A stretch of DNA of 64,000 nt from an uncultured Actinomycetes bacterium (GCA_963707645.1 CAVPQW010000009.1:371771-435770), one strand, 5' to 3'. Positions 6,336 through 54,709 are shown, counted from the first letter of the stretch. Numbers and translations are program-made. Notes: generated by a model from the letters alone, not told the origin.

Positions 6336-7264
6336 GCCAGACGACGAAGCCGGGGAGGCACCGCCGCGCCGAGGCGTCCGATGACGGACCGGGGCCGGCG
6401 ACCGGGCCCGACTTCACGATCATCACGGGGCTGTCGGGCGCCGGCCGGTCCGAGGCCGCGCGGTGTCTCGAGGATCTCGGGTACTTCGTGGTCGACAACC
6501 TGCCGCCGGGCCTGATCGGCAAGATGGCCGAGCTCGCCGCGTCGTCGGGCGGGCCGCAGCGGGTGGCGATCGTTGCGGACGTCCGCAGCGGGGTGTTCTT
6601 CCGGGACCTGGCGGACGGGTTCGCGGAGCTGAAGCGACTGGAGATCCCGTACCGGATCCTGTATCTGGAGGCGGAGGACGACGACCTCGTCAACCGGTTC
6701 GAGGGAACGAAGCGCCGCCACCCGCTCGCCGCCGCCGGCAGGGTCGTCGAGGGCATCCGCAAGGAGCGCCTGATGATGGAGTCGCTCCGGGGGGAGGCCG
6801 ACCTGGTCATCGACACGTCCGGCCTGTCGCCGCACGACCTCCGGGACAAGGTCCGCGACGCGTTCGCGCCGTCGAAGGCCCAGCAGGCCATGCAGGTCAG
6901 CGTGGTGTCGTTCGGCTATAAGTACGGGGTCCCGCGCGATGCCGACATCGTGCTCGATGTCCGGTTCCTGCCGAACCCCCACTGGGTGGCCAGGCTCCGG
7001 CCGCTCCCCGGCACCGACGCCCGCGTGCGCCGCTACGTCACGCAACAGGAGGCCTACGGGGAGTTCATGAAGCGGCTGATCGACCTGCTCGACTTCGTCG
7101 TCCCCGGCTACGTGGCCGAGGGGAAGTCCTACCTGACGATCGCCGTCGGATGCACCGGCGGCCGCCACCGTTCGGTGGTGGTGTCGGAAGCGCTGGGCTC
7201 GTACTTCCGGGATCAGGGTCTCCCGGTGGCGGTCGGGCATCGCGACCTGGGGAGGACCGGGTGA
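6332..7264 (+). CDS. rapZ: RNase adapter protein RapZ (YvcJ-family P-loop NTPase)
   Basis: The ATG overlaps the uvrC stop as ATGA. It has a Walker A motif, ITGLSGAGRS, and a conserved C-terminal CTGGRHRSV motif. It is the 3' part of the long frame-merged ORF 4619..7264. Confidence 0.9.
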   Translation: MSQTTKPGRHRRAEASDDGPGPATGPDFTIITGLSGAGRSEAARCLEDLGYFVVDNLPPGLIGKMAELAASSGGPQRVAIVADVRSGVFFRDLADGFAELKRLEIPYRILYLEAEDDDLVNRFEGTKRRHPLAAAGRVVEGIRKERLMMESLRGEADLVIDTSGLSPHDLRDKVRDAFAPSKAQQAMQVSVVSFGYKYGVPRDADIVLDVRFLPNPHWVARLRPLPGTDARVRRYVTQQEAYGEFMKRLIDLLDFVVPGYVAEGKSYLTIAVGCTGGRHRSVVVSEALGSYFRDQGLPVAVGHRDLGRTG

Positions 7265-7309
7265 TGCGTGGCCCGCGACCCGGCGCGAACGGAGCGGGCG
7301 TCGGTGGCA

Positions 7310-7392
7310 TGCGATCCGGGGCGCACGAGGTGGGCATTGGTCGCGCCCGACCCGGGGCGCACGAGGTGGGCATTGGTCGCGCCCGACCCGGC
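7310..7392. repeat. Intergenic tandem repeat, ~2.3 copies of a 36-bp unit (cccgacccggggcgcacgaggtgggcattggtcgcg)
   Basis: Direct reading of the sequence between rapZ and the downstream gene shows two perfect units and a partial third. Confidence 0.8.
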
Positions 7393-7413
7393 TCCGGGTG
7401 GAGGATGCGCTAG

Positions 7414-8439
7414 ATGCAGCTGCGGAACCGTCCCCCCGGTTCCCGCATGAGCCCGTTCGGGCGGTGGCGCGCGCGCCGCAGGATCCGCCGGGACATGAAG
7501 CCCGAGCGCGCCCCGCGCCGGGCGTTCCGGCGGCCCGGACGGTTGGCGTTTACCCGGTGGCGGCAGCGGCGGGAGCTGCGGGCGGAACGCCGGAGCTTCC
7601 GGCGGTCCGCCCCCGGTGGGGTCGCCGCCTGGCGCGCGCGCCGCGCCGCGCGCGCCAACGCCGAGGCCCCGGCCATGGTCCGTCCGGGCTGGCGCGTTCG
7701 GCGGCGGGCCCGGAGCGAGGCCCGCAGCGTGGCCCGTGAGCGCAAGCCGCAGCGCCTGTCGTTCTCGCAGCGGGTGACGGCGCGGCGCGCCGCGGCGGCA
7801 GCCGCGGCGCTCCCGAAGCCGGCCCGGCCCTCCATGGGCGAGCGCATCGCGGCCCGCCGCGATGCGCCCGCCACCCCCAAGCCCCCGCTGTTCCGGAGCG
7901 CCCGCGAGCGGTGGCTCGGCATCGCGGCCGTGCTCCTCATGATCGGGCTCGTCGGCGGGTTCGCCGTGATGGTGGGGCGGGGCCGGACCGTCGTGTCGGT
8001 CCAGGTCGTGCCGCGCCCGACCCTGTCCGTCCCCGACGACGGCGGGGTGTTCTTCGGGACGCCGCTCGCGGTCGGGCCCTCCAACATCGTGCGCTCCAAC
8101 CCGGCGCCGTCCCCGTCACCGTCGCCGTCGCCGAGTCCGTCACCGAGTCCGAGCCCGGCGCCGCCGCCGACCACGGCGCCGCCCGTCGTCCAGCCCAGCC
8201 CGCCGGCGCCGACCACCCAGCCGCCGCCCAGCCCGTCGCCGAAGCCGTCGTCGCCGAAGCCGTCGCCGAAGCCGAGCCCGAAGGCCTCGCCGACGCCTCC
8301 GCCGTCCCCGAAGCCGAGCCCGAGCCTGAGCCCCCCGCCCAGCCCAAGCCTGAGCCCGCCGCCGTCGCCGACCGTCAGCCCGCCGGGGCCGTCGCCGCAG
8401 GGCGACGGCAGGACCTCCGGCCCCCTCGTCGAGCCCTGA
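7414..8439 (+). CDS. Hypothetical membrane protein with an Arg-rich N-terminus, one TM helix and a Pro/Ser-rich (SPSP, PKPSP) C-terminal tail
   Basis: The 341-aa ORF has a predicted TM helix, WLGIAAVLLMIGLVGGFAVMV. A low-complexity proline-rich tail follows. No recognisable enzymatic domain is present. Confidence 0.45.
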   Translation: MQLRNRPPGSRMSPFGRWRARRRIRRDMKPERAPRRAFRRPGRLAFTRWRQRRELRAERRSFRRSAPGGVAAWRARRAARANAEAPAMVRPGWRVRRRARSEARSVARERKPQRLSFSQRVTARRAAAAAAALPKPARPSMGERIAARRDAPATPKPPLFRSARERWLGIAAVLLMIGLVGGFAVMVGRGRTVVSVQVVPRPTLSVPDDGGVFFGTPLAVGPSNIVRSNPAPSPSPSPSPSPSPSPSPAPPPTTAPPVVQPSPPAPTTQPPPSPSPKPSSPKPSPKPSPKASPTPPPSPKPSPSLSPPPSPSLSPPPSPTVSPPGPSPQGDGRTSGPLVEP

Positions 8440-8513
8440 GGCCCGGCCCGGCCCGGCCGGCCCGGCCCGCCGGGGCCGAATGGGCCATTCGACCAGTCGC
8501 CCCGCACGAGTAG

Positions 8514-10774
<2,261 letters not shown>

Positions 10775-11545
10775 GTGGCGGACCGCAAGCCGATCGTCGC
10801 GGCGAACTGGAAGATGCACAAGACGCATCTCGAGGCCATCCAGACGGTCCAGAAGCTCGGGTATCTCGTCTCCGCGGAGGACGCCGAGGCCGTGGAGGTC
10901 GTCGTGTGCCCGACGTTCACCGCCCTGCGTTCCGTGCAGACCCTGATCGAGTCGGACCGGCTGCCGTTCGCGCTCGGCGCGCAGAACGTGCACTGGGAGG
11001 AGAAGGGGGCGTTCACCGGCGAGATCGCTGCGCCGATGCTCGCCGCGCTGAAGTGCTCGTACGTGATCGTGGGCCACTCCGAGCGGCGGCAGCTGTTCGG
11101 CGAGACCGACGAGACCGTGGCGAAGAAGGTCAAGGCGGTGTTCGCGAACGGGATGACGCCGATCGCGTGCGTGGGGGAGACGCTCGAGGAACGCGAGTCC
11201 GGCCGGACCGACGAGCGCGTCGAGTCGCAGGTCAAGGCGGGGCTCGCGGGCCTCACGCCGGAGCAGGCCCGAACGCTGGTGGTGGCGTACGAGCCCATCT
11301 GGGCAATCGGAACCGGGAAGAACGCCGAACCGGCCGACGCCGGCCAGGTGGTCGGCGTGATCCGGTCGGTGCTGGGTGGCATGTACGGCGACGACGTGGC
11401 CCAGGCCGTCCGCGTCCAGTACGGGGGCAGCGTCAAGGCCGGGAACATGCGCGGCTTCATGGCGCACCCCGAGGTCGACGGCGCCCTCGTCGGCGGCGCG
11501 AGCCTCGACGCCGAGGAGTTCGCCCTGATCGCCAAGTACAGGTAG
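10775..11545 (+). CDS. tpiA: Triose-phosphate isomerase
   Basis: The 256-aa ORF has the motifs AANWKMHKT, VIVGHSERR and AYEPIWAIGTG. Confidence 0.95.
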   Translation: MADRKPIVAANWKMHKTHLEAIQTVQKLGYLVSAEDAEAVEVVVCPTFTALRSVQTLIESDRLPFALGAQNVHWEEKGAFTGEIAAPMLAALKCSYVIVGHSERRQLFGETDETVAKKVKAVFANGMTPIACVGETLEERESGRTDERVESQVKAGLAGLTPEQARTLVVAYEPIWAIGTGKNAEPADAGQVVGVIRSVLGGMYGDDVAQAVRVQYGGSVKAGNMRGFMAHPEVDGALVGGASLDAEEFALIAKYR

Positions 11546-11644
11546 CAGCGGCCCGCCGAGGACTCCGGAAGCCGGAACCAGCCCGGCGGAACGGCCGCCC
11601 GCTCTCGACTTGAACCCGCCGCGCGCCGATGCTTCCATCGAGCC

Positions 11645-12560
11645 ATGCGAGCCTCGCGATTCCTTCCGGCGGTGATCGTGGTCGTCCTGGCCGCGTGTTC
11701 GGAGAGCGTGGCTCCATCGGACACGCACCCGCCGTCCTCCCCGCCCGAGACTTCAGCGGCGACCACCGGGCCGACGTCCGCCCCGACCACCGGGCCGACC
11801 ACCGGACCGACCACCGGACCGACGTCCGACGCTCCGGCCGACCACCGGGCCGACCACCGGACCGACCACCGGACCGACCACCGGACCGTCGCCCTCCGAG
11901 AGCCCGGGTCGTCCGCCCGCGATCCCCATTGCCGGCCTCCCGGAGCAGGGCGTCGCGGTCGAGCACGACGGGGGAGTGGACCTCAACAACTTCTTCGACG
12001 GCGGTCTGGTCGAGCGCCTGGACGGCTTCTCGATCTACAACCCCACGGCGCTGCCGTATCACCTCGTCCTGGAACACGACGGCACCTACTATCTGCTGGA
12101 GGAGTTCCAGCGGCGGCTCCGGCCGCTCGCCTCGCAGCGGGCGGCGGACCGCGCGACGGGCTCCGACCCGACCGGACTCGACCTTCCGCTTCCGACGCAC
12201 GACGGCGAGCCGATCGCCGGGCACTGGCGGTACGTCACGATCGACCCCCGCTACGCCGACCTCCAGATGGCCCAGTGGTCGGGCGAGTGTGAGGTTCCGA
12301 CGGCCTACTTCATCGAGCAGGACGAGGGCGAAGTCGTCCCGGTGACCGGCGAGGCCGCCCCCGAGGACACGCCCGAGTCGTTCGCCCTCGGGTGGACCAA
12401 GCGGAGTCAGGCCGTCGTGTTCCTGCCCGAAGGCGCGTGCGGTATCGGCGCGGAGCAACCGGGCGTGTACTTCTTCCGGAAGCCCGGACAGGGCCGTCTC
12501 CTGGTCGCGACGCCGAAGGGATCCTCGGCCCGCATGTGGGGAACCACGATCGCGGACTGA
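11645..12560 (+). pseudogene. Lipoprotein with an (ACCACCGGNCCG)n-encoded TTGP repeat linker, apparently frameshifted inside the repeat
   Basis: A signal peptide with lipobox VVVLAACS sits in frame 2. The protein-like C-terminal domain (MDLNNFFDGG...) is in frame 0. The switch falls within the 12-bp tandem repeat around 11830-11880. Confidence 0.5.
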
Positions 12561-12601
12561 CCGTCGGCCGGTCCGGACGAAACTGACTAGGATTCGCCCT
12601 C

Positions 12602-13867
12602 GTGCGGCGACTCCTGTACGTGTGCCTCGACGGCCTCGGCGACGACCCCGTCCCGGAGTTGGGGAACCAGACTCCCCTCGAGGCCGCGGAGACGCCGTTC
12701 CTGGATTCCCTTGCCAAACGCGGCCGCACCGGGAACGTGTACACGGTCGCCCCCGGCATCGCGCCGGAGTCCGACCCCGGCGTCTTCGGCATCCTGGGGT
12801 ACGACCCGCGGGAGGAGCACCCCGGCCGGGGCGTGCTCGAGGCCGTCGGCATCGGCATGGACTTCGACGAGGACGACCTGGCCTACCGCATCAACTTCGC
12901 CACGGCGGAGTGGCCGGAGATCGTCGACCGGCGGGTCGGCCGCGACCTTTCCTCCGAAGAGGCGCAAGCCCTCGCCGAGGAGGTCGAGCAGCAGCTCACG
13001 CTGCCGAACGCGTCGTTCCAGCTCCGGGCCACCGTCGAGCACCGCGGCGCGCTCGTGATCCGGTCGACCGAGGGCCCGCTGTCCGCAAACGTGTCGAACA
13101 CCGACCCGGCGTACGGTCGCGAGGGCCACCTGGGGGTGGCCCTCGCGACCTTCGAGCCGCGCGTGGTCACGGCCGAGCCGCTCGACGGCACGCCGGAGGC
13201 CCGGCGTGCCGCCGACCTCACCAACGCCTTCGTCGAGGGCGCGGCCCGGATCCTGGACCGTTCGGAGGTCAACGCGAAGCGCCGCGAGCGGGGGAAGCTC
13301 CCGGGGAACCTCATCCTCACCAGGGACGGCAGCGACCACCTGCCGCCCATCGAGCACATCAAGGAGCGGTTCGGCCCTTCCTGGGGGTGCTTCGTGGAGA
13401 TGCCGGTGGAGCGCGGCATCGCGATGCTCCTCGGGATGGAGGCGGTCGACGCGCCTCGCCTGGACAACTCCGACGCGTCGTTCGCGGCCTGGGCGGCGCT
13501 CGCGGCCGAGGCGCTGGAGGGGTTCGACGCGCTCTACGTGCACATCAAGGGCCCGGACATCCCCGCCCACGACGGCCGGGCGATCGACAAGCGCGACGTC
13601 ATCTCCGCGATCGACCGGGCGTTCTTCGGCGAGGTCCTCCAGCGGATCGACCTCAGGAACACCATGGTCGCCGTGACGGCGGACCATTCGACGTCCTGCG
13701 TCCGCAAGGCGCACACGGACGATCCGGTCCCGTTGGTGGTCGCCGGGGGCCCGGTCACCCCCGACGGGTCGCCCGGGTACGGCGAATCCGTGGCCGCGAA
13801 GGGGTCGCTCGGGACCATGCGGGGGCCCGAGATCGTGCCCATGCTGGTGGGGATGATGCGGGAATGA
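12602..13867 (+). CDS. apgM: Cofactor-independent phosphoglycerate mutase, archaeal type (ApgM family)
   Basis: The 421-aa ORF starts LLYVCLDGLGDDPVPELGNQTPLEAAETPFLDSLA and has a metalloenzyme and PhosphMutase domain architecture. It is co-located with gap, pgk and tpiA. Confidence 0.8.
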   Translation: MRRLLYVCLDGLGDDPVPELGNQTPLEAAETPFLDSLAKRGRTGNVYTVAPGIAPESDPGVFGILGYDPREEHPGRGVLEAVGIGMDFDEDDLAYRINFATAEWPEIVDRRVGRDLSSEEAQALAEEVEQQLTLPNASFQLRATVEHRGALVIRSTEGPLSANVSNTDPAYGREGHLGVALATFEPRVVTAEPLDGTPEARRAADLTNAFVEGAARILDRSEVNAKRRERGKLPGNLILTRDGSDHLPPIEHIKERFGPSWGCFVEMPVERGIAMLLGMEAVDAPRLDNSDASFAAWAALAAEALEGFDALYVHIKGPDIPAHDGRAIDKRDVISAIDRAFFGEVLQRIDLRNTMVAVTADHSTSCVRKAHTDDPVPLVVAGGPVTPDGSPGYGESVAAKGSLGTMRGPEIVPMLVGMMRE

Positions 13868-20698: not shown

Positions 20699-20787
<89 letters not shown>

Positions 20788-20788
20788 C

Positions 20789-21790
20789 TCTGAAACTGAT
20801 GGACGTCGGGTACAGACTCGGGCCTTCGGAGCGAAGGAGGACCGATGACCGACAGGGAGCTGGACCGGCGGGCCGCGCATCGTCTCGCGGTCATCCGCCA
20901 CGTCCAGGAGGTGACCCGCAACGTCAGCAAGACCTGCCGCTACTACGGGATCACGCGCCAGGCCTACTACAAGTGGCTGCGCCGCTACGAAGCGGGCGGT
21001 GTGGCAGCCCTCCGGGACGGCAGCTCCCGCCCGCGCACGAGCCCGAGGGCGACCAGCGCCGAGGTCGTGGGCAAGATCGTGTATCTGCGCACGACCTACC
21101 ACTTCGGCCCGCAGAAGATCGCCATGTACCTTGAGCGTTACCACGGGCTGAGGCTCAGCCCGTCGGGGATCTGGCGGATCCTGCATCGCCTCGACATGAG
21201 CCGGCTCCCGGCATCGCAGCGATACCGCCGTCAGAAGGATCGCTGGAAGCGGTACGAGAAGCCGCAGCCCGGCTCACGTGTGCAGATCGATGTGAAGTTC
21301 ATCGCACCGCTCCCCGGGTCGCGGCGCAGGTACTACCAGTACACCGCGATCGACGACTGCACCCGGATCCGTGTCCTGCGGGCATACGAGCGGTGCAACC
21401 AGGCGACGTCGATCCGATTCCTCGACGAGGTCCTCGCGCGCCTGCCGTTCCCGGTGGAGACCATCCAGACCGACAACGGCGCTGAGTTCCAGTCGGGCTT
21501 CCACTACCACCTGCTCGACCGGGGCATCGGACATGCGTACATCCGGCCAGCGACACCTCGTCTCAACGGCAAGGTCGAGCGCTCCCATCGGATCGACGCG
21601 GACGAGTTCTACAAGCTCCTCGAGGGCGTCGTCATCGACGGCTCGGGGCTGTTCGCCGAGCGTCTCCGCGCGTGGGAGGACTACTACAACTTCGACCGCC
21701 CACATGGGGGCCTGGGTGGCCAGACGCCCTATGAGAGACTGCGGCAGAAGACTGGGGCCCAGGTGTGACCGGCCATCGTCAGTTGCACAC
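20789..21790 (+). mobile_element. IS481-family insertion sequence with imperfect terminal inverted repeats and a 15-bp target-site duplication
   Basis: The left repeat is tctgaaactgatggacg and the right repeat is the reverse complement of ...cggccatcgtcagttgca. The flanking direct repeat cccctccgacaccac lies at 20774-20788 and 21791-21805. That repeat is the last 14 nt of tRNA-Leu plus one base. Confidence 0.8.
20845..21768 (+). CDS. IS481-family transposase (DDE integrase core)
   Basis: The 307-aa ORF has an HTH N-terminus and an rve core with QIDVKF...YQYTAIDDCTR...QTDNGAEF. Confidence 0.85.
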   Translation: MTDRELDRRAAHRLAVIRHVQEVTRNVSKTCRYYGITRQAYYKWLRRYEAGGVAALRDGSSRPRTSPRATSAEVVGKIVYLRTTYHFGPQKIAMYLERYHGLRLSPSGIWRILHRLDMSRLPASQRYRRQKDRWKRYEKPQPGSRVQIDVKFIAPLPGSRRRYYQYTAIDDCTRIRVLRAYERCNQATSIRFLDEVLARLPFPVETIQTDNGAEFQSGFHYHLLDRGIGHAYIRPATPRLNGKVERSHRIDADEFYKLLEGVVIDGSGLFAERLRAWEDYYNFDRPHGGLGGQTPYERLRQKTGAQV

Positions 21791-25547: not shown

Positions 25548-25790
25548 GATGCGTGTCTACGCTCCTGTCTACGCTCCGAGCGGAACGTGCTGGGACGGCG
25601 AGGGATGTCGACCTCATGCCGGGCCTCGATCTCCAGGCACGGCGTGAGACGCGGTGGAACCCTCAGACATGGCGCTCGCCCGATTGAGGGCCTAGTGGGC
25701 GGAATAGCCGTCAGGGCGTCAAATCCCCCCTCCGACACCATCTACCTGCGGAAACGCAACGCCTCCGGGCCTTCGCCGGCCGGCCCGGGG
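25548..25790 (+). repeat. Copy A of an att-like repeat of ~240 bp that contains the 3' half of tRNA-Leu (anticodon loop to CCA, 25684-25740)
   Basis: The segment ttgagggcctagtgggcggaatagccgtcagggcgtcaaatcccccctccgacacca matches the tRNA-Leu 3' half. It is preceded by the tandem motif tgtctacgctcc x2 at 25554-25577. The downstream flank is homologous both to the native tRNA flank and to copy B. Confidence 0.75.
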
Positions 25791-27454: not shown

Positions 27455-27700
27455 TAGAGGTGTCTACCATCTGTCTACGATCCGAGCGGAACGTAGTGGG
27501 ACGGGGCGGCATTGTGACCTCGATCGGGCCCCGATTCAGGCACGGAGCGGTACCCCGTGGCATCCTGCGGGACGGAGCTCACCGCATTGAGGGCGTAGTG
27601 GGCGAATAGCCCGTGGGGGGTTCAAATCCCCCCTCCGACACGGTTCTGACCTGCGGAAACGCCAGGATTTGGCGGCCTTCCAGCCAACCCCAGCCGGGGG
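27455..27700 (+). repeat. Copy B of the att-like repeat with a tRNA-Leu 3' fragment (27597-27642)
   Basis: About 75-80% identical to copy A over ~240 bp. It carries the tgtctacMatcc x2 motif at 27461-27483 and ends in ...ggttcaaatcccccctccgacac. Confidence 0.75.
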
Positions 27701-35396: not shown

Positions 35397-38300
35397 CTAC
35401 GCGCCGGCGCCCGATTGCGGGCAGACGCGCTCGTACGGCCGGTCGGGGAGCAGGTCGGACCACTCGCCGGGCGTCAGGTCGCGACCGGCGACGCCGCACG
35501 CGAACCGCACCCACGACCGCACGTCGGTCGGCCACACGGCGGTGTCCACCAGGTTCTCGATCACGAGCTCACCGCGAGAGGTGAACCGCGCGGCGGGAAC
35601 CGAGGCCGGCTCGATCGGGAACGCGGTCCCGATGCGCTTGCGCGTGCGGACGTCCCACAGGCTCGCCGTCTGGTCCGACGAGCTGATCACGAACGTGCGT
35701 CCGTCCCGGCGAGAACGATATCGGGTCGACGGCGTCGGTCGCCACCCGGATCGGGGCGCCCATCTGCGCACCGGCTCGCCCATCCCAGAACACGACCGCG
35801 CCGTCCTCCGTGCCGCCCGCGAGGACGTCGCCATCAGGCGCGAACGCGATCGAGGTGATGTGACCGTCGGTCTTCGGGCTGAAGAGCGGGGCGCCGCTCG
35901 CCGCGTCCCAGACCCGGACCGTGGACGAGGGTGCGCAGGCGACCGAGGGCTGCGAGCGCGCGCCCCGTCGGGCTGAACTCAAGCCCGCCCTTGCCGAACG
36001 GGACTTCGTGCTCGTACAGCGTGTTCCCGGATGCGAGGTCGAGCACGTGGACTACCGATCCGGATGCCCCGTCGGCCTGCGTCTGGACCGCGAGGAGCTT
36101 CCCGTCCGGGCTCACGGCCACGCCCCAGACCGTGGCCCCAAAGGCGAGCTGTCGGTCGACCCTCCGGCGATCGACGTCCCACAGGGTGATGCCGCCGCTG
36201 ATGCCGCCGGTCACGAGCGTGCGACCGTCGGGCGTGAACGTCAGCGCATTCGCCTCCTTCCCGTTGCGTGCTGGGAGCGTCGCGACGAGGCGGCCGGTCT
36301 CGAGGTCGGCCAGCCCACCCGGCCGCCGTCGAGCGTTTCTGCCATCAGCCGCCCCGACGGGTCGACCCAGAAGCAGGGCGTGAATCCGCATCCGTCGCTC
36401 GGCTTCCAGCGGAAGGAACGGCCGAGGCGCCGGGAGCCGGCCAGGTCCCACGCCACCCCCTCGGAGAGCACCGTGCCGTCGTCGGGCGTGATTTCGACGT
36501 TGAGCCCGCCGGAGAAGGGCCGGTCGACCTGGCCCGACTGGATGTTCCAGACGTCGAGTCCGCCGAGGAAGTCCGCCCCGACGACGGTCGAGCCGTCCCC
36601 GGTCCAGGCCACGTCGACGACCCACGCCTTGACCGGAAGGTCCCGCCCAGGCGCTCGACGTGTGCGCTCGTGAGGTCCAGCAGCACCAGGAGGGCGCTCG
36701 GCTGGATCGGATTGGGGCTGTTGTCCGCGATCGCCGCCATCTCGCCGTCGGGCGAGAGTGCGAACGGCCCACCCATGTCGAACCGGCGCTCGATGCGGCC
36801 GTCGTCGGACCATACGAGCGTCTCCCGCCCTGGGCCGACGTCACGAGCGTCCCGCCGGGCGTAAACCGTGCGATGACCTCGTTGACTGCGTGGCCGAGGG
36901 GGTACTCCCGGTCCCACAGCACGTCGCCCGTGGCAGCGTCGAGCATGGACAGGTGCGCGGCAACCGGGATGGGAACGCCTGGCGCCGAGGTCGCCACCGC
37001 GACGGCGATCCGTGCCCCGTCGGGCGAGAAGTCGAAATGCGTGAACCGGGGCGGGCCCGCGGCTGCCGGGAGCCGAGTCCCAGGAACCGATCTCCCGGGC
37101 TTCGCGGGCGGCCACGTCGACCATGAACAGGTGCACGCGTGTCGTTCGAGGTGGTGCCCACCGCGAGGGTGCGGCCGTCCGGGGAGAATGCGAGGGCCTC
37201 CTGGGACACGGCGCCCTCCAGCTGGACGGGCGGCCGTGCCGCTCGCCACGTCCGGAGGTTGTGGAAGCGGACGACACCGGCGGAGTCGCCCGAGGCCATG
37301 ACGCGTCCGTCGGAGCTGATCGCCACGGCGTCGATCTCGTTCGCCGACGGACGGATGGTGTGGAAGACGAGCGGGTTCGACTGGAGGACTCCGAGCAGGT
37401 CGCCCCGGGTCTCGGGCAGGTCGGCGAGCCGGGTTCGCCAGCCACCGCGAGCAGCATCTGGCGGTCGAGCTTGGGTTCCGCCTGGGCCAGGGCTCCGACG
37501 CGTTCGGCGTCCGAGCGGAGGGCCTGTTGCTCGGCCGCGGTCTGCGCGTCACGGGCATTGCCCCGCTGGATCAGGGCCAGCGCGCCGGCAACGAGCGCGA
37601 CCACCAGGAACAGGGCGACTCCCGCCAGGAGGCCGCGGAGGCGGCGGTTGGTCCGGCGCTGGCGGTCGGCTTCTCGCTCGCTGCCCTGGCGGCCCTGCGC
37701 CAGGAACTCCCGCTCGAGCGCGTTGATCTCGCGGTCGTGCTGCTGCGCCCAGTCGAGCGTGGCCGACAACCGGGCGCCCCGGTAGAGATCGCCGGGGTCG
37801 CGCCCCCGCTCCTCCCACTGCCGGGCGGCCTGGGTGAGGTGGCCGCGAAGCTGGCGGCCCGTGGCGTCCTCCTCGAGCCAGCCCCGGAGGCGGGGCCATT
37901 CCCGGATCAGCGCCTCGTGCGCGATCTCGATCATGCCGTCGTCGCGCGTCAGGAGGCGGTCCTCTGTCAGGCGGCCGAGCACGGCGGCGACGGCCGGGTC
38001 GTTCTCCGCGTCGAACTCCGTTACGGGGACGCGCCGGCGCACGGCCGCCTCGCCCTCGCCCTCGCCGACCAGCCGCAGCAGCACGCTCCGGACGGCGTCG
38101 CGCTCGGCCGGGCCGAGCTGGTCGTACGAATCCTCGCGCCAGCCGCGCGACGGCGCCCCGGACGCCCCCGGTCCGTTCGTGGGCGTCCAGGCGGAGCCAC
38201 CCGGCCTCGTCGCGGGCCCGCCACAGCTCGACGAGCGTGGTCGACAGGAGCGGGAGCCCCCCGGGCTCGTCGGCCACCTCCGCCACGAGGACGTCGGCGA

Positions 38301-40302
38301 GCGCGGACTCGACCCGGAGCCCGGCCCTCCGCGCGGGAAGCTCGATTGCCCGCCGGAGCTCGTCAGTCGTCATCGGGCCGACAAGGACGAGGTTGGCGGC
38401 GAGCAGATCGGCAAGCTCCCGGTACGGGGCGACGTGGCCCGTGTAGTCGGCCCGGATGGTTACGACCACCGCATGGGCCTCGGGTTCGTCGGCCATCCGG
38501 ACAAGGCGATGGAGGAACGCGTCCCGTTCCGCGTCGTCGGTGGTCGTGGTGAAGGCCTCCTCGAACTGGTCGACGACCAGCACGAGCCGCGTTCCCGGGT
38601 CGGCGGTGAGCAGCGTGGTCTCGAGCGTCACCATCGGATGCTCGCCGGGGCGCATGACAGCGTGGCCCCACCGTTCGCTCCCCGGGAGGAGCCCGGCGGC
38701 GAGCGACGGAAGCAGCCCCGCCATCACCACCGAGGACTTCCCGCCGCCCGAGGGCCCGACCACGCCGAGCAGGCCGGTCCCAACGGTCCTCGCCGCGAGC
38801 TCGCCGACGAGGCGTTCGCGGCCGAAGAACGTCGCGGCGTCCTCTTGTTCGAACGCCGACAGGCCCTTGTACGGGCACACGTCGGCGGCGCCATCCGCGA
38901 GGGGCGATCCGTAGATCCGCCCGAGCCGCATGGCGATCGCGTTGCCGGCGAACTCCAGCCCGGCGGCCTGCCGGTCGCGCCCCGACGCCAGGAACTCCGC
39001 CGCCGCCGTCAGCCGGCGCTCGGCCTCGGCCCGGGCCCATTCGGCGAGCGCCTCGTGGATCCGCGCCGGAACGCCACCCGTCGAGCGGAGCATGGCCTCG
39101 GCGGGCAGCTCGCCGAGGTCCTCCGGCCGGCCCACGTACGCGAGGGCGATCTCGTGGAACGCCTCGGCCCCCAGCGGCAGGAGCCGGCGGTGGCCGTCCC
39201 CCCGCACGTCGGCCCGTTCCACCAGGGACGCGATCTCTGCCTGACCGTCTGCCTCCCCGAACAGGCCGAGGACCAGCGCGGCCGATGCCTCGACGTCTTC
39301 CATCGCGGCGGCGACCGCCGCGGCCGCCTCCGGGTGGATATGCAGGTCGTCGACGACGAACAGGCCCGGGGTTCGGGAGGCGCGAGCCTGGGCCACCAGC
39401 GCGAGCGCGGCGGCCGCCCCGGCGCCGCCGGACCCCGCGTATCGGACCGAGCCCTCACCGTGCCGCTGCACATCACGGGCGAGTTCCGCGGCGAGTCTGG
39501 TCGTCCCGATCCCCGGTGGCCCGGACACCAGCACGACCCTTCCCCGGCCCCGCCGCACCTGGCGCCACGTCCCGCGCAGCCACCGGAGCTCGTGGGTCCG
39601 GCCGGCGAGCGTGGTGTCGTCGTCGAGCTCGATCGGCATCGCCGCCGCGATGACCGGCTCGCGTTCGGGGCGCTCGGCCGGGGGACCGGTGAACCCCGCC
39701 TCGAGCAGCTCGACCGGTCGGTCGAACCCCTTGAGCTCGGCGGCGCCGGCAGGTCGGAACGCGAGGTCCGGCGCCGCCTTGTCGGCGACGTTGGTGGTCA
39801 CCAGGACCTGTCCCGCTCCAGCCTTCGAGCACAGCCGCGCCGCCATGTTGAGCGCACTGCCCCGGAATCCGCCTTCGACCGGGATGGCCTCACCCCGGTC
39901 GATGCCGACGCCGACGGGCAAAGGGAACGCCGGGTCGAGCTCTGTCTCCTCCCGACACGCCTCCTGGAACTCGAGCGCGGCGCGCACGGCCTGGTCGGTC
40001 TGCTCAAAGACGGCGAACGCCTCGTCGCCACGGAGCTCGAGCACCTCGCCGTTCCGGGCCTCCACGGCCTCCCGGGCAACCTCGGCGAACCGCTTCGCCA
40101 GGCGTGCTGCCGCCCCGTCCCCGCGTTCCCGGGTGAACGTCGAGTACCCCCGGATGTCGGCGATGAGGAACGTTCGCACAACGGCGCCCGACCCACTCGC
40201 CGCCGAATCGCCCCCAGTGACTTCCTCGATGTCCGACACGCACCCCCCTCGGAGCCGCAGCGTACTGGGTGGAGGATGGGAAGAGCCGGCCGACGGAGGC
40301 AA
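35397..40302 (-). pseudogene. Giant STAND-type signalling protein: class III adenylyl/guanylyl cyclase, AAA ATPase, nSTAND (NACHT-like) NTPase, TM helix and WD40 repeats, with 8 or more frameshifts
   Basis: The cyclase domain carries RTFLIADIRGYSTFT...GVGIDRGEAI. The first P-loop is VVLVSGPPGIGTTRLAAEL. The second NTPase carries CPYKGLSAFEQEDAATFFGRE...GVVGPSGGGKSSVVMAGLLP. A conserved IEIAHEALIREWPRLRGWLEED segment and a TM helix, LLAGVALFLVVALVAGALALI, follow. WD40 blades are scattered over ORFs in all three minus frames (37549-40302, 36345-38084, 35834-37558, 36841-37326, 36241-36813, 35569-35982, 35397-35834). Confidence 0.7.
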
Positions 40303-40570: not shown

Positions 40571-40945
40571 ATGTCACGCGACCAGCGCCATCGCGAACGC
40601 CGCGGTGGCCCCACATCGTTCCGGTGCACCCGGTGCGGGCTCGACGTGCCGCTGCATGCCGCGGGAACCGCGCACCGCAACCACTGTCCGAACTGCCTGT
40701 GGAGCCGTCACCTCGACGACGACACGCCGGGCGACCGGGCGGCCGAGTGCGGCTCGGCCATGGAACCCATCGCCATCAGCGTTCGTGGGGACGGCGAATG
40801 GGTGCTCGTGCACCGATGCTCCCGGTGCGACGTCGTCCACCTGAACCGCTCGGCCGGCGACGACAACCCGCTCGCACTCCTGCGACTGGCGGTGCGGCCG
40901 CTCGCCCAGCCGCCGTTCCCGATCGAGCTGGTGACCAAGCTGTGA
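40571..40945 (+). CDS. RNHCP-domain protein (zinc-ribbon)
   Basis: It has the diagnostic motifs FRCTRCG...HRNHCPNCLWSRH and a C-terminal CSRCDVVHLNR. The 124-aa ORF is intact. Confidence 0.75.
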   Translation: MSRDQRHRERRGGPTSFRCTRCGLDVPLHAAGTAHRNHCPNCLWSRHLDDDTPGDRAAECGSAMEPIAISVRGDGEWVLVHRCSRCDVVHLNRSAGDDNPLALLRLAVRPLAQPPFPIELVTKL

Positions 40946-40986: not shown

Positions 40987-41262
40987 ATGAACACCGGCAC
41001 GAGCACCGAGACGATCGCCGAGGGCCATACCGACATCCGGGTCGACGAGGGCGACCACGAGCGGTTCAGCCACTACGTCGACAAGGGCAAGGTGACCGAG
41101 GCGTACGTCCTGGGCACACCGGTCATCGCCCTGTGCGGCAAGGTGTGGGTGCCGTCGCGCGACCCCAAGAAGTTCCCGGTGTGCCCGGAGTGCAAGCGGC
41201 TGTACGACATGGGGCCCGAGGGCCGGCGCCTCGAATGGGAACGCCGCAGCCAGGAAGCCTGA
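40987..41262 (+). CDS. DUF3039-family protein (conserved actinobacterial)
   Basis: The motif FSHYVDKGKVTEAYVLGTPVIALCGKVWVPSRDPKKFPVCPECKRLY matches the DUF3039 signature. Confidence 0.7.
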   Translation: MNTGTSTETIAEGHTDIRVDEGDHERFSHYVDKGKVTEAYVLGTPVIALCGKVWVPSRDPKKFPVCPECKRLYDMGPEGRRLEWERRSQEA

Positions 41263-41290: not shown

Positions 41291-43640
41291 TCAGGCCGGG
41301 ATCATCTCCCCGACGAATGCCTTCAGCGCCCGGTACTGGGACTCGCCGTCGAGTCCTGCTTCCCGGAGCACCATCGGCCCGGGGCCGCTTCCGAGGAACC
41401 GCCCATCGCGGAACGGGTGCAGCGAGGCCTCGCGGCCCCGGGCCGACGTGACCCACCGGAACAGCGTCGGCATGGTGAAGTCCGTGATCCCGATGGCCTC
41501 CTCCGCGACCTCCGGCGGGAAGATCCGGTCGCGATCGGCCTGCGGCAGGGCATCGAACAGCTCGGCGCTCGCCACGGAGTACACGTCGAGCTCGATGCCG
41601 TCGGCGAGGAGCCGGGGGAGCGCATGCTGCAGGAAGGCGTACGTCACCGCGCTGCCCTGGAGCACGAGGCTGCCGGCCCGCGGCCCGTTCGCCTCGCGGA
41701 GCCGGTAGACGCCCGAAGCGGCCGCCTCCACAGGCGCCAGCCCGAGCGCGTTCCGGTCGAGCACGGTCTCGTTCGGCCTGGTGACGAAGGGGAACATGAC
41801 CGCGGGACGCCGCCGGAGCGCGGCGGTGACCAGGGTCCAGATCTCGGCCGGGTCCCACGGCGTGAGCGTGATCACCGTCCCGCGCGGGAAGTTCTCCTGG
41901 ACGATCTGCAGCGGCTGGGGATCGGCGTGGGTCGGTCCGTCCTCGCCGGTCTTCAGCCCGGTGTGGGCGCAGACGAGGATCGCCGTGGGGAACGGCTCGC
42001 CAGTGACGGCCGAGCGGGCCTGGGCTCCGATCGCGTGCAGCCGGGCAGGGATGTGCCCGAGAGCTGCGATGAAGGCCCCGTACGACGATCCGACGCCGAT
42101 GTGGCGCCCGTATGTCGACAGTCCGCACAGGATGCCGGCCATGGCGTCCTCGCAGATGCCGCCCGTCGACATCAGGCGGGCAGCCGGGTTGTCCTGCAGG
42201 TCCAGGAACCCGTTGGGGAACCCGGCAGCGACGCCGTCGATGCTGGTCGAGCCGAGCAGGTCGGCCGCGGCCGCCAGCATGGCGCCGCCCCCGGCCCTGT
42301 TGTAATGGTTCAGCACCCGGCCCAGCTCGGCCCGGAGCGTGGTGGACGTCCCGGGCTCCAGGCGGAACTCGGCGCGGGACCTCGTGGGCGCGATACGCCG
42401 CCTCGAATACCCGCCCGGCGTCGGGTGCCCCGGCGCGTGGCGTCCGCGCCATGCCGTCCAGCCGGGTCCGCGAATCGCGGAGCCGCTCCGCCAGGAACGC
42501 GACGGTCGCGGATTCCCGTTCGAGGACCCGGCGAACGACCGACAGAGCGTTCCACAGGCACCGCTCGAGCACGGCCTGCTCCGCCTTCCAGCTGACAGGG
42601 CGGGGACGTGGGATCGGCGCAGCTCGGCAGGGCCTCGCCGGTTCCGGCGAGGAGGGGATCCATGGCCTGGTAGAACTCGGGCGAGCACAGCTTGTGTCCG
42701 GCGCCGTGGGACTGCCGGCCCTCGATGCCGTACTGCCACCCCTTGACCGTCGAGTACACGATCGCGGTGGGCTGACCGCTGTCGAACGCGAGCGCCGCCT
42801 GCTGCGCGGCCGCGATCTGCCGGAGGTCCCGGCCGTCCGGAACCCACACCACGTTCCAGTCGTGGAGCCAGAAGAGCTCACGGGGATCCCACTGCACGTA
42901 GTCGCCGGGGTCCTGCCCGGTGCGGCAGACGTGGTCGGAGTCGATCGAGGCCTGGTTCCAGTCGACGTGGACGAAGACGTTGTCGAGCCGCATGGTGCCC
43001 GCCGCGGCGAGCGCCTCGGCCACCCGCCCGGGGGTCAGCCCACCCTCGCCCTCGACGATGTGGACCCGGGGTGCGTTCGGCCCGTAGGTGTCCCGCGCGC
43101 CGAGCGCAAGCCCGAGCGACGTGGCCATGCCGACACCCGAGGCGCCCGTGGCGAGCCGGACGAAGGGGGTCGCCGGGGTGGGGTGGCCGTCGAGGGCCCG
43201 AGAGCCGAACCCCCGGAACAGGGGGGTGTCGGTGATCGGGTTCCGCCGGAACCCCAGGAGGTCCTCGAGCCGGAGCCGGTCCCGCAGCTCGTCCGGGAGG
43301 AGGTCCTCCGCCGCGAGCCGGGCCACCTCGTCCCGGAGCGCCCACAGCGCGTACAGGCCGAGCGCCTTGTGCCCGGCCGCGTACGAGATCAGATCAGCGT
43401 CCGGGCGATCCGGCCGCGACAGGTCGTGGTCGAGGGCGCCGAAGATCAGCGACGCCACGATCCGTCCCGACGAGATGGAGCCGCCGGGGTGCCCGGACGT
43501 GGGCGCGTAGTTGTACATCGCCGCGCACAGCGACCGGTAGATCAGGTCGAACGTGCCGAGGTGACCGATGTGGTCATCGGTGAGCGCGTCGCGCGGAGCC
43601 GTTGCCGCCGACCTCGAGGTAGGTGCCGCGTCGCGGCCCG
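41291..43640 (-). pseudogene. tkt: Transketolase, with 3 or more frameshifts
   Basis: The N-terminal TPP-binding domain (GHPGGSISSGRIV...AGHKALGLYA...GEGGLTPG) is in ORF 42310-43830. The middle and C-terminal domains (PTHADPQPLQ...TRPNETVL...) are in ORF 41291-42847. A linker segment (ERESATVAFLAERLRDSRTRLDG) sits in a third frame. The start codon MAYAFGPRRGTYLEVGG is in yet another frame. Confidence 0.8.
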
Positions 43641-43869
43641 AATGCGTATGCCATCGCCCGTTTCCCCCTTCGCGAAGGAGCACTTCGGAGCGTGGCCGGC
43701 GCCGCGCCGGCCCACGTACGGCCGTTCGGCCCTGCCCGGGGATGCCTTTCGGCGGGCCCTCCGCGCCGAATCGCGCGTGGCGCCGTCGACGACCCGGCCC
43801 GATCCGGCCGGGACCACCGGCCCTGCGCACCTGGCCCGCCGGTCATCACAGTGGTGTTCGTCCGAGAAG

Positions 43870-46839: not shown

Positions 46840-48392
46840 ATGCTGCTCTCGGAGCTGGCGCGGGTGTCGAACGAGGTCGCCGCGACCTCGAAGCGACTGG
46901 CGAAGATCGCCCTGCTCGCCGACCTGCTGCGCGCGGCCGAGGCCGACGAGGTGCCGGTCGCGGTGGCGTACCTGTCCGGGTACGCGCCGGGTGGGACGAT
47001 CGGCGTCGGATGGGCGGCCTGCGCTCGCTGCCGGAGCCGCGGAGGAGACCGTCGCTCGAGGTCCTCGAGGTCCAGGGCGCGCTCGAGGACCTCCGCGCCG
47101 CGACCGGGCCGGGCTCCCAGGCCAGGCGGAAGGACGCTGCTCGGCGACCTGTTCGGCCGGGCGACGGCGCCCGGAGCAGGCGTTCCTTCGTGGGTCGATC
47201 CTGGGCGAGCTGCGGCAGGGCGCGCTCGAGGGCGTCATGGTCGAGGCGGTGGCCCGGGCCGCCGAGGTGCCGGCCGCCGACGTTCGCCGGGCGGCGATGC
47301 TGGCGGGCGACCTGGGGGCGGTCGCACGGGCCGCGATCACCGAGGGGACCGAGGGCCTGCAGCGTTTCCGGCTCACCGTGCTCCGGCCGGTCCAGCCGAT
47401 GCTGGCGCAGTCGGCGGAGGACGTGGGGGACGCGCTCGAGCGCGCCGGGGGAGAGGCGGCCGTCGAGTGGAAGTTCGACGGCGCCCGGCTGCAGATCCAC
47501 CGCTCGGGCAACGAGGTCCGCGCGTTCACCCGGAACCTCGCAGACGTCACCGACCGCGTCCCCGAGATCGTCGAGGTGATCCGGGGCCTGCCCGTCGAGT
47601 CGGTCGTCCTCGACGGCGAGGCGATCGCGCTTCGGCCCGACGGACGGCCGTTCCCGTTCCAGGTCAGCATGAGCCGGTTCGGCTCGCAGCTGGACGTGGA
47701 GGGGTTGCGGGCGGCGACGCCGCTGTCCGTGTTCGCGTTCGACGTGCTGCATCTCGACGGGCGCGACGTGCTCGACCTGCCCCTGCGTGAACGGTTCGAC
47801 GCGCTCGAACGGGCCGTTCCGGCGGAGCACCGCGCGCCGCGGATCGTCACGGCCGACCCGGACGAGGCGTCGGCGTTCCTCGACGAGGCGATCGAACGGG
47901 GCCACGAGGGCGTGATGGTGAAGTCGCTCGATGCTCCGTACGAGGCCGGCCGGCGGGGCACGGGCTGGATCAAGGTCAAGCGGGCGAACACCCTCGACCT
48001 GGTGGTGCTCGCCGCGGAGTGGGGGCACGGCCGCCGGCAGGGCTGGCTGTCGAACCTCCACCTCGGCGCGCGGGACCCGGCGAGTGGGGGGTTCGTCATG
48101 CTCGGCAAGACGTTCAAGGGCATGACCGACGCCGTCCTGACCTGGCAGACGGAGCGGCTCCAGGAGCTCGAGACCTCCGCAAGACGCATACACGGTCCAC
48201 GTCCGGCCGGAGCTCGTGGTCGAGGTCGCGTTCGACGGCGTGCAGACCAGCACGCGCTACCCGGGCGGCGTCGCGCTGCGGTTCGCCCGCATCAAGGGGT
48301 ACCGGCCGGACAAGCGCCCGGAGGACGCCGACACCATCGAAACCGTGCTCGCGATCAGGGCCCGTGCGCACGGGGAGGATTCCGCCGGGTAA
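46840..48392 (+). pseudogene. ATP-dependent DNA ligase (LigB/LigC-type), with 4 or more frameshifts
   Basis: The N-terminus reads [30 protein letters not shown]. The adenylation domain carries the motif [13 protein letters not shown]. The OB-fold end carries [41 protein letters not shown]. Three frame switches lie within ~47020-47200 and one near 48180. Confidence 0.8.
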
Positions 48393-48930: not shown

Positions 48931-50157
48931 ATGCGGGTGCTGCTGGTCGGTGTGGGCGGCGTGGGCGAGGCCATCGCGGTGATCGCGCGGGAACGGCCCT
49001 GGCTCGAGTCGATGGTGCTCGCCGACTACCGGGTCGAGCGGGCCGCCGAGGTCCAGGCGAGGACCGGCGACCCGGACCGGTTCCCGGTCGAACACGTCGA
49101 CGCGAGCGACCCGGCGTCGGTGGCGGAGCTCGCACGGCGGCATACGGTCGACCTGGTCATGAACGCCGTGGACCCGTCCTTCGCCCGCTCCGTCTTCGAC
49201 GCGGCGTTCGAGGCCGGGTCGCACTACATGGACATGGCCATGACGCTGTCCAAGCCCCACCCGAACAGCCGTTACGAGGAGTCGGGACGTGAAGCTCGGC
49301 GACTAGCAGTTCGAACGCGCCGCCGACTGGGAGGAACGCGGCAAGCTCGCGCTCGTCGGCATGGGCGTGGAGCCGGGCCTGTCCGACGTCTTCGCCGCGT
49401 ACGCGGCCAAGCACCTGTTCGACCTGGCGGCATCGACGAGATCGGCGTCCGCGACGGCGCCAACATCGTCGTGCACGGGTACGAGTTCGCCCCGACGTTC
49501 TCGATCTGGACCACGATCGAGGAGTGCCTGAACCCACCGGTGGTGTGGGAGCAAGGGCCGCGGGTGGTTCACGACCGAGACGTTCAGCGAGCCGGAAGTG
49601 TTCGAGTTCCCGGACGGCATCGGGCCCGTTGAGTGCGTGAACGTCGAGCACGAGGAGGTCCTGCTGATCCCGCGGTGGGTCGACTGCAGGCGGGTGACGT
49701 TCAAGTACGGGCTCGGCGCCGACTTCATCGAGGTGCTGAAGACGCTCCACCTGCTCGGCCTCGACGGGACCGAGCCCGTGAGCGTGAAGGGCGTCAAGGT
49801 CGCGCCGCGGGACGTGGTCGCCGCCGTGCTGCCCGACCCGGCGCACGCTCGGCGACCGCATGACCGGCAAGACGTGCGCCGGCACGTGGGTCACCGGCGT
49901 GCACGAGGGCCGGCCGCCGCGAGGTCTACCTGTCCCAGGTCGCCGACAATGAGCAGACCATGGCCGAACACGGCCTCCAGGCCGTCGTGTGGCAGACCGG
50001 CGTGAACCCGGTCATCGCGATGGAGCTCCTGGCGGAAGGGCTGTGGTCGGGCGCCGGCGTGCTCGGGCCCGAGGCGTTCGACCCGGATCCGTTCGTGGAG
50101 CGGATGCCCGGCTACGGGCTCCCCTGGGCCATCCGCGACTCGCTCGCGGAGGGCTGA
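48931..50157 (+). pseudogene. Saccharopine dehydrogenase NADP-binding family protein with an in-frame TAG and 3 or more frameshifts
   Basis: The Rossmann N-terminus reads MRVLLVGVGGVGEAIA. Conserved segments (KLGD*QFERAADWEERGKLALVGMGVEPGLSDVF; IDEIGVRDGANIVVHGYEFAPTFSIWTTIEECLNPPVVWE; FPDGIGPVECVNVEHEEVLLIPRWVD; HGLQAVVWQTGVNPVIAMELLAEGLWSGAGVLGPEAF) lie in different frames. A TAG at ~49300 replaces an expected Glu codon. Confidence 0.75.
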
Positions 50158-54286: not shown

Positions 54287-54709
54287 CTAGGAGCGGGGTG
54301 CGCCGCTGGGCGCCCCACCGGGGCCGCCGGGGCCGCCGGGGCCGCCAGGACCACCGGGCCCGCCCGGACCTCCCGGCCCGCCCGGACCCCCGGGCCCACG
54401 GCCGCCGCCGCGGCCGCCATAGCCGCCGCCGCGCCCGCCGCCACCACCACCGGGCCCACCGAAGCCGAACCCGCGGCGCCGCTCGCGGATCTGCACCGCG
54501 GGCGCCTCCTTGATCTTCACGTTCAGCGGCGTGTGGCCGGTGCGCTCCAGACGGACCTTGATGAAGTCGCTCGTGTGCTCGCGCTCGATCTCGCGCCAGC
54601 CGTCGTTCAACAGATGCTTCAGGCGGCCCTCAGCGGTCTTCCGGAGCCTCTCGGACCCCGGGACCTTGACCTGCAGCCGCTCGTACCGAACTTCCTTGTG
54701 ATCGCCCAT
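54287..54709 (-). CDS. Small protein with a conserved N-terminal domain and a Gly/Arg plus (GGP)n low-complexity tail
   Basis: The product starts MGDHKEVRYERLQVKVPGSERLRKTAEGRLKHLLNDGWREIE. The tail is RGGGYGGRGGGRGPGGPGGPGG... encoded by a 9-bp tandem DNA repeat at ~54300-54400. Confidence 0.5.
   Translation of the reverse strand: MGDHKEVRYERLQVKVPGSERLRKTAEGRLKHLLNDGWREIEREHTSDFIKVRLERTGHTPLNVKIKEAPAVQIRERRRGFGFGGPGGGGGGRGGGYGGRGGGRGPGGPGGPGGPGGPGGPGGPGGPGGPGGAPSGAPRS

Follow-up and report, generated by a model that had tools for sequence, protein, structure and literature searches.

Fusions of a class III nucleotidyl cyclase with AAA_16/STAND modules form an established class of mycobacterial proteins, of which Rv0386 is the type. 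In Rv0386, Rv1358 and Rv2488c the cyclase is directly followed by an AAA_16/NB-ARC-like P-loop module, and these soluble proteins continue with TPR repeats and a LuxR DNA-binding domain. A second relevant group is the nSTAND1 clade of NTPases (PF20703), for which section 7 and keyword passages of Kaur, Iyer, Burroughs & Aravind (2021; PMC8195603) list EAD, TIR, peptidase and kinase N-termini as well as FGS/lectin sensors, and assign the proteins to predicted conflict systems. Here we analyzed a gene that combines features of both groups. It is located on the minus strand at 35397..40239 of a 64,000-nucleotide stretch of DNA from an uncultured Actinomycetes bacterium (GCA_963707645.1, CAVPQW010000009.1:371771-435770; G+C ~70%), which is referred to as the window and provides all coordinates given below. 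The gene encodes a STAND cyclase of ~1,603 amino acids (aa) with the order cyclase, AAA_16, nSTAND1, transmembrane (TM)-like helix and WD40 propeller, and is interrupted by nine +/-1 frameshifts in the deposited sequence. As best explanation of the data we propose that the protein belongs to a family of what look like single-pass, receptor-type, STAND-gated nucleotidyl cyclases in soil Actinomycetota and Chloroflexi, and that its frameshifts are most likely assembly errors; to this joint reading we give roughly even odds (about 50%).

With the mycobacterial group the window protein shares the direct succession of cyclase and AAA_16 P-loop, and proteins with Rv0386-type layout (P0095-P0099, P0105, P0106, P0116) match the first ~33-35% of the query with 43-50% identity. 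Unlike these proteins, it continues with nSTAND1, the TM-like helix and WD40 repeats, and no GerE or TPR match was obtained when the frame-corrected sequence was searched with Pfam. With the nSTAND1 clade it has in common a full-length profile match, canonical Walker A and B motifs and the arrangement of N-terminal output, central NTPase and C-terminal repeats. It differs from the clade as presented in the cited passages of PMC8195603 by its N-terminus made of a cyclase plus an extra AAA_16 module, by its WD40 sensor and by the TM-like helix downstream of the NTPase; in these passages no mention of a TM helix following nSTAND1 was found. Dozens of public proteins from metagenome-assembled genomes (MAGs), all under generic names, show the complete combination of cyclase, AAA_16, nSTAND1, TM helix and WD40, of which no description was found in the literature searched. 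A first-pass annotation of the window had regarded a cyclic-nucleotide-generating domain as an unusual output for a STAND sensor, a view that appears overstated since Rv0386-type cyclase fusions are established and the N-terminal architecture recurs in dozens of public proteins.

To read the protein, the frame had to be reconstructed. Pieces of one protein are distributed over open reading frames (ORFs) in all three frames of the minus strand, from 40302 down to 35397. The longest ORF is opened by a TTG at 40302, while a GTG at 40239 agrees with the N-terminus of the orthologue and was taken as gene start; the stop codon is the TAG at 35399-35397. The orthologue is an intact ORF of 1,610 aa at locus L001 (L001:6071-10903), which is collinear with the window gene throughout (1014/1591 positions, 64% identity, in a frameshift-aware alignment). 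Three-frame reading combined with this alignment yielded a corrected path with nine +/-1 shifts, 10 segments and zero in-frame stops. Alignment to L001 places the single-base sites at ~38136 (+1), 37436 (-1), 37137 (+1), 37073 (+1), 36826 (-1), ~36662 (-1), 36318 (-1), 35941 (+1) and 35706 (+1), i.e. in the span 35706..38136 on the minus strand: the 5' 2.1 kb of the gene are free of frameshifts and all nine fall into the 3' 2.8 kb. Frame corrections were derived solely from reading the three frames directly and from aligning to L001, at 64-95% identity, as the frameshift-aware aligner calls too many shifts with references of less than ~45% identity, and reported 13 'shifts' in the intact ORF of homologue L003. 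For strand calls a codon-usage hidden Markov model (HMM) was used because frame plots of G+C at third codon positions alone were too noisy. The domains are also seen by Pfam on the unrepaired fragments: a raw ORF of 917 aa contains nSTAND1 (E 1e-73) and AAA_16, a second raw ORF in another frame contains the remainder of nSTAND1 (profile positions 282-378), and WD40 matches occur in four more ORFs. Hence, the fragmented reading frame and the size of ~1600 aa claimed by the first-pass annotation were both borne out (10 segments over three frames; 1,603 aa after correction), and its order of cyclase, AAA, STAND, TM and WD40 modules was recovered on the frame-corrected protein by Pfam, profile search, AlphaFold/Foldseek and hydropathy.

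The class III cyclase domain (39685..40185, minus strand, aa ~19-185) has kept its catalytic residues. Pfam Guanylate_cyc matches it below threshold (16.7 bits vs a cut-off of 21.9, E 0.0055, profile positions 14-172 of 183). However, a profile built from 30 family members matched the Mycobacterium avium cyclase Ma1120 in the PDB with E 3e-28. The cyclase domain of an AlphaFold model of aa 1-449 (predicted local distance difference test, pLDDT, 90.5; predicted template modelling score, pTM, 0.85) was superimposed by Foldseek on Ma1120 with a template modelling score of 0.92, a root-mean-square deviation of 1.3-1.5 Å and E 6e-14, followed in rank by Rv1264, Cya2, CyaC and Rv1900c. Thus the modelled structure confirmed the cyclase-homology fold despite the sub-threshold Pfam score. 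Wherever the sequences of the 30 family members can be aligned, no variation is seen in the two Asp residues that bind metal or in the transition-state Asn and Arg (motifs FLIADIRG, RGDEAF, ALNMAARL), a set that Ma1120 also possesses. Ma1120 is the best match by both profile and fold, although it is, like Cya2, a stand-alone or otherwise regulated domain, unlike the window cyclase with its fused NTPases. The positions that specify adenine, normally Lys and Asp, hold Glu and Gly, each in 26/30 family members, and the third specificity residue of the window-type cyclase is Ala rather than Tyr. Base-specifying residues are also non-canonical in Rv0386. Among the best PDB matches are the KDA->EGY mutant of Ma1120 and the guanylyl cyclase Cya2, both of which have the same Glu/Gly pair, and replacement of K101 and D157 in Ma1120 increased guanylyl cyclase activity (PMC4215837). 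Because Glu and Gly take the place of the Lys/Asp pair, the designation 'adenylyl' is not to be assumed and the substrate is uncertain; the analogy suggests GTP or another non-adenine nucleotide. Of the adenylyl/guanylyl cyclase originally annotated, the class III cyclase is therefore retained, whereas the Lys/Asp signature expected of an adenylyl cyclase is missing.

The first P-loop module (38905..39627, minus strand, aa ~205-445) is AAA_16-like, with a Pfam match at aa 211-261 (E 2e-8) in the frame-corrected protein and a 5-stranded core plus helical bundle in the AlphaFold model. Its Walker A motif reads GPPGIGTT (39522-39499), with Thr where the family has a conserved Lys. The Thr is present in the window protein (GIGTTRL) and likewise in L001 (GMGTTRL), while nearly all other family members have Lys (GKTRL). 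Since the L001 orthologue is intact, the substitution represents a lineage trait and not decay, and judged from this motif the module may be a catalytically dead scaffold in the lineage comprising the window and L001. This loss is a point against our overall interpretation, as the first module may then contribute a scaffold only.

The second module, nSTAND1 (37794..38874, minus strand, aa 456-815), is interrupted by the first frameshift near 38136. In the frame-corrected protein it matches PF20703 over profile positions 1-378 of 379 with E 5e-112 and 375.6 bits (cut-off 27.1), as compared to 249.7 and 92.9 bits for the raw fragments. Walker A (GPSGGGKSS, 38757-38731) and Walker B (LVVDQFEE, 38580-38557, in the context LVLVVDQFEE) are both canonical, and the motif CPYKGLSAFEQ is found at position 1 of the nSTAND1 model. 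The NACHT profile (PF05729) remained sub-threshold in the window protein (19.0 bits vs a cut-off of 26.7) and was passed by the homologue L002 (30.6 bits). By these scores the second P-loop is NACHT-related and best assigned to nSTAND1, so that the motifs of the NACHT-like P-loop named in the first-pass annotation are real, but its assignment shifts from NACHT proper to nSTAND1. Other proteins have a SARP DNA-binding or a kinase N-terminus in front of the same AAA_16 plus nSTAND1 core, and because of this occurrence the core can be viewed as a regulatory module with swappable outputs.

Downstream of nSTAND1 lies a TM-like hydrophobic helix, LLAGVALFLVVALVAGALALI (37569..37631, minus strand, aa 870-890), which is preceded by the Arg cluster RQRRTNRRLRG. 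It is followed by the WD40/beta-propeller region (35418..37335, minus strand, ~640 aa), in which seven of the nine frameshifts are located. WD40 and beta-propeller Pfam models span about aa 966-1562 of the frame-corrected protein, and the region ends in the conserved tail FACGVAGRDLTPGEWSDLLPDRPYERVCP at 35504-35418. A hydrophobic segment of 19-28 residues with a preceding Arg cluster was found in all 15 full-length homologues that include the region, with a Kyte-Doolittle mean of 2.3-2.8 over 19 residues. Beyond these, 79 related loci from Actinomycetota, Cyanobacteria, Chloroflexi and other phyla were compared, and in 76 of them a TM-like segment preceded by an Arg/Lys cluster lies no more than 220 aa downstream of nSTAND1. 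The 79 loci, taken from L001-L080, have representatives from Streptomyces, Kitasatospora, Amycolatopsis, Nostoc, Moorena and Chloroflexi.

The orientation of the helix is suggested by sister proteins. In P0100-P0120 a cyclase with 54-59% identity leads straight into a TM helix, which is followed by a YVTN propeller and a solute-binding domain (SBP_bac_5 or Peripla_BP_6). These receptor-type cyclases belong to the same cyclase subfamily and have, as the window protein, a single TM helix, implying a cytoplasmic N-terminus, with the beta-propeller placed after it; they differ in lacking both NTPase modules and in using YVTN plus SBP_bac_5 or Peripla_BP_6 as sensor in place of WD40. An intermediate arrangement is provided by locus L162 (L162:6001-11099), with the order cyclase, AAA_16, nSTAND1, TM, YVTN and SBP_bac_5. 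Solute-binding domains of the SBP_bac_5 and Peripla_BP_6 type are extracytoplasmic. As the sister proteins place such domains after the helix, a topology with the N-terminus inside and the sensor outside the cell is the likely one for the window protein. Judged from hydropathy, the positive-inside rule and these sister architectures, the sensor of the STAND cyclase is thus probably extracytoplasmic.

Alternatively, the hydrophobic segment would not span the membrane but be a buried or oligomerization helix of a cytosolic STAND regulator, whose WD40 domain senses an intracellular ligand as in Apaf-1, with the cyclase output unchanged. Classical STAND proteins are cytosolic and the well-studied WD40 propellers are mostly intracellular, which speaks for this possibility. 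We nevertheless consider it unlikely, as strong hydropathy and an Arg cluster are present in every homologue, as the homologous modules are connected through the same helix to true extracytoplasmic solute-binding domains, and as the C-terminal region contains conserved Cys pairs. Extending the membrane-spanning topology to the nSTAND1 clade as a whole is a bolder step. In that case the clade, whose members have until now been taken for cytosolic NTPases of conflict systems, would largely consist of single-pass TM receptors, a kind of 'outside-in NLR' in which sensor repeats outside the cell (WD40, YVTN, solute-binding domains) drive NTP-dependent oligomerization of a cytoplasmic output, in the present subfamily a cyclase with guanylyl-like specificity residues; we put this forward tentatively and regard it as rather doubtful at present.

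How such a receptor might work can be sketched from what is known of STAND switches and from the cyclase dimer requirement, class III cyclases having an obligate dimeric active site. With the helix spanning the membrane and the N-terminus inside, the WD40 propellers would bind a ligand outside the cell, and ligand binding would relieve autoinhibition of the STAND switch. The nSTAND1 domain would then bind or exchange NTP and oligomerize, which would bring the N-terminal cyclase domains together into productive dimers that synthesize a cyclic nucleotide, while the first, lysine-less P-loop may serve as scaffold. According to this scheme, which we infer by analogy, the protein would be a regulatory receptor and not a phage sensor.

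The genomic surroundings of the gene were compared with those of its homologues. Intact homologues are encoded at L001 (1,610 aa, syntenic), L002 (1,629 aa), L003 and L064, whereas the copy at L029 is apparently frameshifted. The best match to the window protein was 67% identical in the protein database and 65% identical in a scan of genome contigs. L001, which derives from an Illumina-assembled MAG, is syntenic with the window (L001 1-5968 corresponds to window 54195->40998), and both have in common cspA, clpS, the genes for DUF2017, DUF3054 and LigB, a NosD-like gene and the DUF3039 gene. The latter (40987..41262, plus strand) is the sole conserved neighbor; it is 89-90% identical and abuts the intact STAND orthologue in L001. 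Relative to L001, the window contains insertions comprising an RNHCP gene, a transketolase-like gene and a block of SDH/epoxide-hydrolase genes. The RNHCP gene (PF12647, E 1.6e-37; 40571..40945, plus strand) is intact and divergent from the STAND gene, an adjacency to which the first-pass annotation had attached weight. It is absent at the syntenic L001 locus and from all 80 related loci (0/80). As the adjacency is not conserved, RNHCP is not part of the system, and the proposed link is not supported. A scan of metagenome contigs for the same lineage, based on LigB, had its closest hit at 71% identity among the matches listed, and among these matches no locus with a STAND, DUF3039 or RNHCP gene was found.

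The first-pass annotation had also raised a role in phage defense, and there are reasons to consider it. nSTAND1 was defined in predicted counter-invader systems, as stated in the passages of PMC8195603 referred to above, and cNMP (cyclic nucleotide monophosphate) cyclases are recurrent effectors in NTP-dependent conflict systems (PMC7159879). Moreover, PycC models of PADLOC (best PDLC02367, E 1e-13) outscore Pfam Guanylate_cyc on the cyclase domain. In this scenario the protein would be an antiviral NLR-like (Avs- or bNACHT-type) or Pycsar-like factor, whose cytosolic sensor recognizes a phage protein and whose cyclase raises the alarm through a cyclic (pyrimidine) nucleotide. Pycsar, reportedly (Tal and colleagues, 2021), is a two-gene system of a cyclase and a cNMP-activated effector. 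In contrast, the window cyclase, in spite of its match to the PycC model, is fused to NTPases and a sensor, and no gene for a cNMP-binding effector is adjacent to it in the window, L001, L002, L003, L029 or L064, i.e. the two-gene layout is absent from every locus examined. With Avs and bNACHT proteins the window protein shares the tripartite logic of effector, STAND NTPase and repeat sensor, but the comparison with a defense catalogue that had been suggested gave no such assignment: at E<=0.01 PADLOC reported PycC, mad3/mad8, IetA and HEAT-ARM fragments only, and no Avs, bNACHT or other STAND family. In addition, the NACHT match is sub-threshold, no defense island is seen at the homologous loci and the sensor is probably outside the membrane. 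In the flanks of L001, L002, L003, L029 and L064 we found genes for a luciferase-like oxidoreductase, a response regulator, a CO-dehydrogenase subunit, a P450, a TMEM175 channel, SbcCD-like proteins, a two-component system and PEMT, and no mobile or defense genes. Intact homologues thus reside among ordinary metabolic and regulatory genes, a finding that the first-pass annotation itself had named as refuting its reading, and the gene keeps its chromosomal position near DUF3039 in two genomes, while the window copy is located in a variable region near a tRNA-Leu gene and an IS481-family transposase. Taken together, a function in phage defense appears quite improbable, and the regulatory receptor remains our preferred interpretation.

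It remains to be explained why the gene is broken in the window. According to codon-usage HMM, Pfam and orthologue-guided alignments, lesions are confined to one contiguous block of ~31 kb (~21.8-53 kb), in which nearly every gene longer than ~500 bp carries single-base frameshifts, while ~28 kb of flanking genes are free of lesions. The lesion-free left flank comprises uvrC, rapZ, gap, pgk, tpiA, apgM and the opp operon, and the right flank mtrA/mtrB/lpqB, htrA and ttuA. Between 33 and 53 kb, lesions are found in the STAND gene (9), in the genes for LigB (46840-48375; 4), an SDH-like protein (48931-50157; 5 plus one in-frame TAG) and a transketolase-like protein (41291-43830; 2), in the DUF2017, lipoprotein and YceI genes (1 each) and in a delta-60 repeat gene (1-2), amounting to a density of ~1 per 780 bp with near-random spacing regardless of gene identity. 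Further broken genes of the block encode a PLC-like (23.8-25.3 kb) and an RTX-like protein (29.8-31.1 kb).

The first-pass annotation had concluded that the gene is decayed and almost certainly non-functional. This is doubtful, since spectrum and distribution of the lesions fit consensus errors of long-read sequencing better. We think it probable that the nine frameshifts arose as indel errors of the consensus, within ~31 kb of weakly supported metagenome assembly that would be of long-read origin, in which case the organism itself probably has an intact gene. All lesions are single-base events and no larger deletions or truncations were detected, and just one nonsense codon faces ~27 frameshifts. 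Downstream of its first frameshift the STAND protein keeps 47/47 near-invariant residues; similarly, frame-corrected LigB (85% identical to L001) keeps 105/105 residues classed as near-invariant from 77 intact homologues, despite four frameshifts. For both frameshifted genes together, 0/152 near-invariant codons are changed, where ~4 would be expected at a substitution:indel ratio of 5:1 (P ~0.01). Likewise, a location of all nine lesions in the 3' 56% of the gene has a chance of ~0.005 under uniform decay, and the lesions are blind to gene identity inside one contiguous block. The ratio of C-terminal to N-terminal identity with respect to L001 is 0.86 for the window gene and 0.90-0.94 for intact pairs. 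The same splitting is observed for homologues in unrelated long-read assemblies: on Flye-style ENA contigs the homologous genes are split, none of the 15 homologues that the protein search found on long ENA contigs reaches ~1,600 aa, and those of Illumina-assembled MAGs are intact (1,610, 1,629 and 1,882 aa). At locus L161 both the STAND homologue (L161:6001-10843; 933 + 625 aa) and the adjacent SBP_bac_5 gene (11033-12881; 252 + 365 aa) are split, which suggests that frameshift errors are common in the assembly series of L161, and at L162 at least 4 shifts occur in ~1 kb.

Several observations weigh against assembly errors and for a genuine recent pseudogene, in which case the organism itself would carry the nine frameshifts in a decaying variable region beside tRNA-Leu and IS481. 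The frameshifts are present in the deposited sequence, neighboring genes are broken too, and the housekeeping genes on either side of the block are intact, a situation also known from pseudogene-bearing genomes. The SDH-like gene has an in-frame TAG at 49305-49307, located between VKLGD and QFERAADWE in the same frame on either side, the sole nonsense codon of the block; it takes the place of a Glu codon of homologues. Homopolymers of 6-7 nt in the block are in frame (e.g. C6 at 38257, 39198 and 40243), several lesions are outside any homopolymer run, and the block itself includes stretches of 2.5-4.2 kb that are free of lesions. Errors of the classical homopolymer type are for the first two of these reasons unsupported as cause. 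Mismatch-repair-less actinobacteria have an insertion-biased indel spectrum rich in 1-bp events, which weakens the argument from the single-base spectrum. Furthermore, the block begins at an integration hot spot, a plausible site of decay, directly after tRNA-Leu (20699-20787) and the IS481-family transposase (20845-21768). Two repeats of the 3' half of tRNA-Leu(GAG) are located downstream, at 25684-25729 and 27587-27632, with 72% and 87% identity and small indels; these repeats bear the signature of att-like tandem remnants of elements integrated at the tRNA. Transposases of the IS110 and IS481 families are both present in the window. Finally, no fragment of the gene is found in the protein database (best match 67% identity), although the PGK of the window is present there at 100% identity, which fits an annotation of the source that skipped the gene as a pseudogene. 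In a pseudogene, selection may have continued for some time on the 5' part, which encodes cyclase and NTPases (694 aa, then an out-of-frame tail). Given the intact near-invariant codons and the skewed position of the lesions, we hold real decay to be the less likely explanation, though one to be taken seriously, and favor consensus errors.

Two further ideas were discarded. The block is unlikely to represent a decaying second copy, since no intact STAND paralogue is present in the protein database (best 67% identity). The rapZ-gap interval (7.3-8.5 kb), where actinobacteria usually carry yvcK and whiA, was suspected to be a lesion in the otherwise clean flank; it encodes a Pro-rich low-complexity membrane protein and not a broken whiA or yvcK. 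The only ORF in this interval (window 7264-8532) is Pro/Ser-rich, of low complexity and membrane-anchored, and a short tandem duplication is found upstream at ~7260-7330. The IS110-family transposase (DEDD_Tnp_IS110 + Transposase_20; 1258-2472) is intact and adds a second type of insertion sequence to the window. A 9-nt periodic repeat of the GCCGGGGCC type, Gly/Pro-rich when translated, is found at the right-hand edge of the lesion block (54308-54460).

If the lesions are assembly errors, 'pseudogenes' of long-read metagenomes may be artefacts of poorly supported blocks, and the STAND cyclase gene should not be counted as lost. With dozens of public members, the family joins a cyclic-nucleotide synthase to a STAND switch via a conserved, probably membrane-spanning helix and is a candidate for bacterial signaling by cGMP or another non-cAMP nucleotide in soil Actinomycetota. 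If our interpretation is true, NLR-like switching would be extended to the transmembrane sensing of external ligands.

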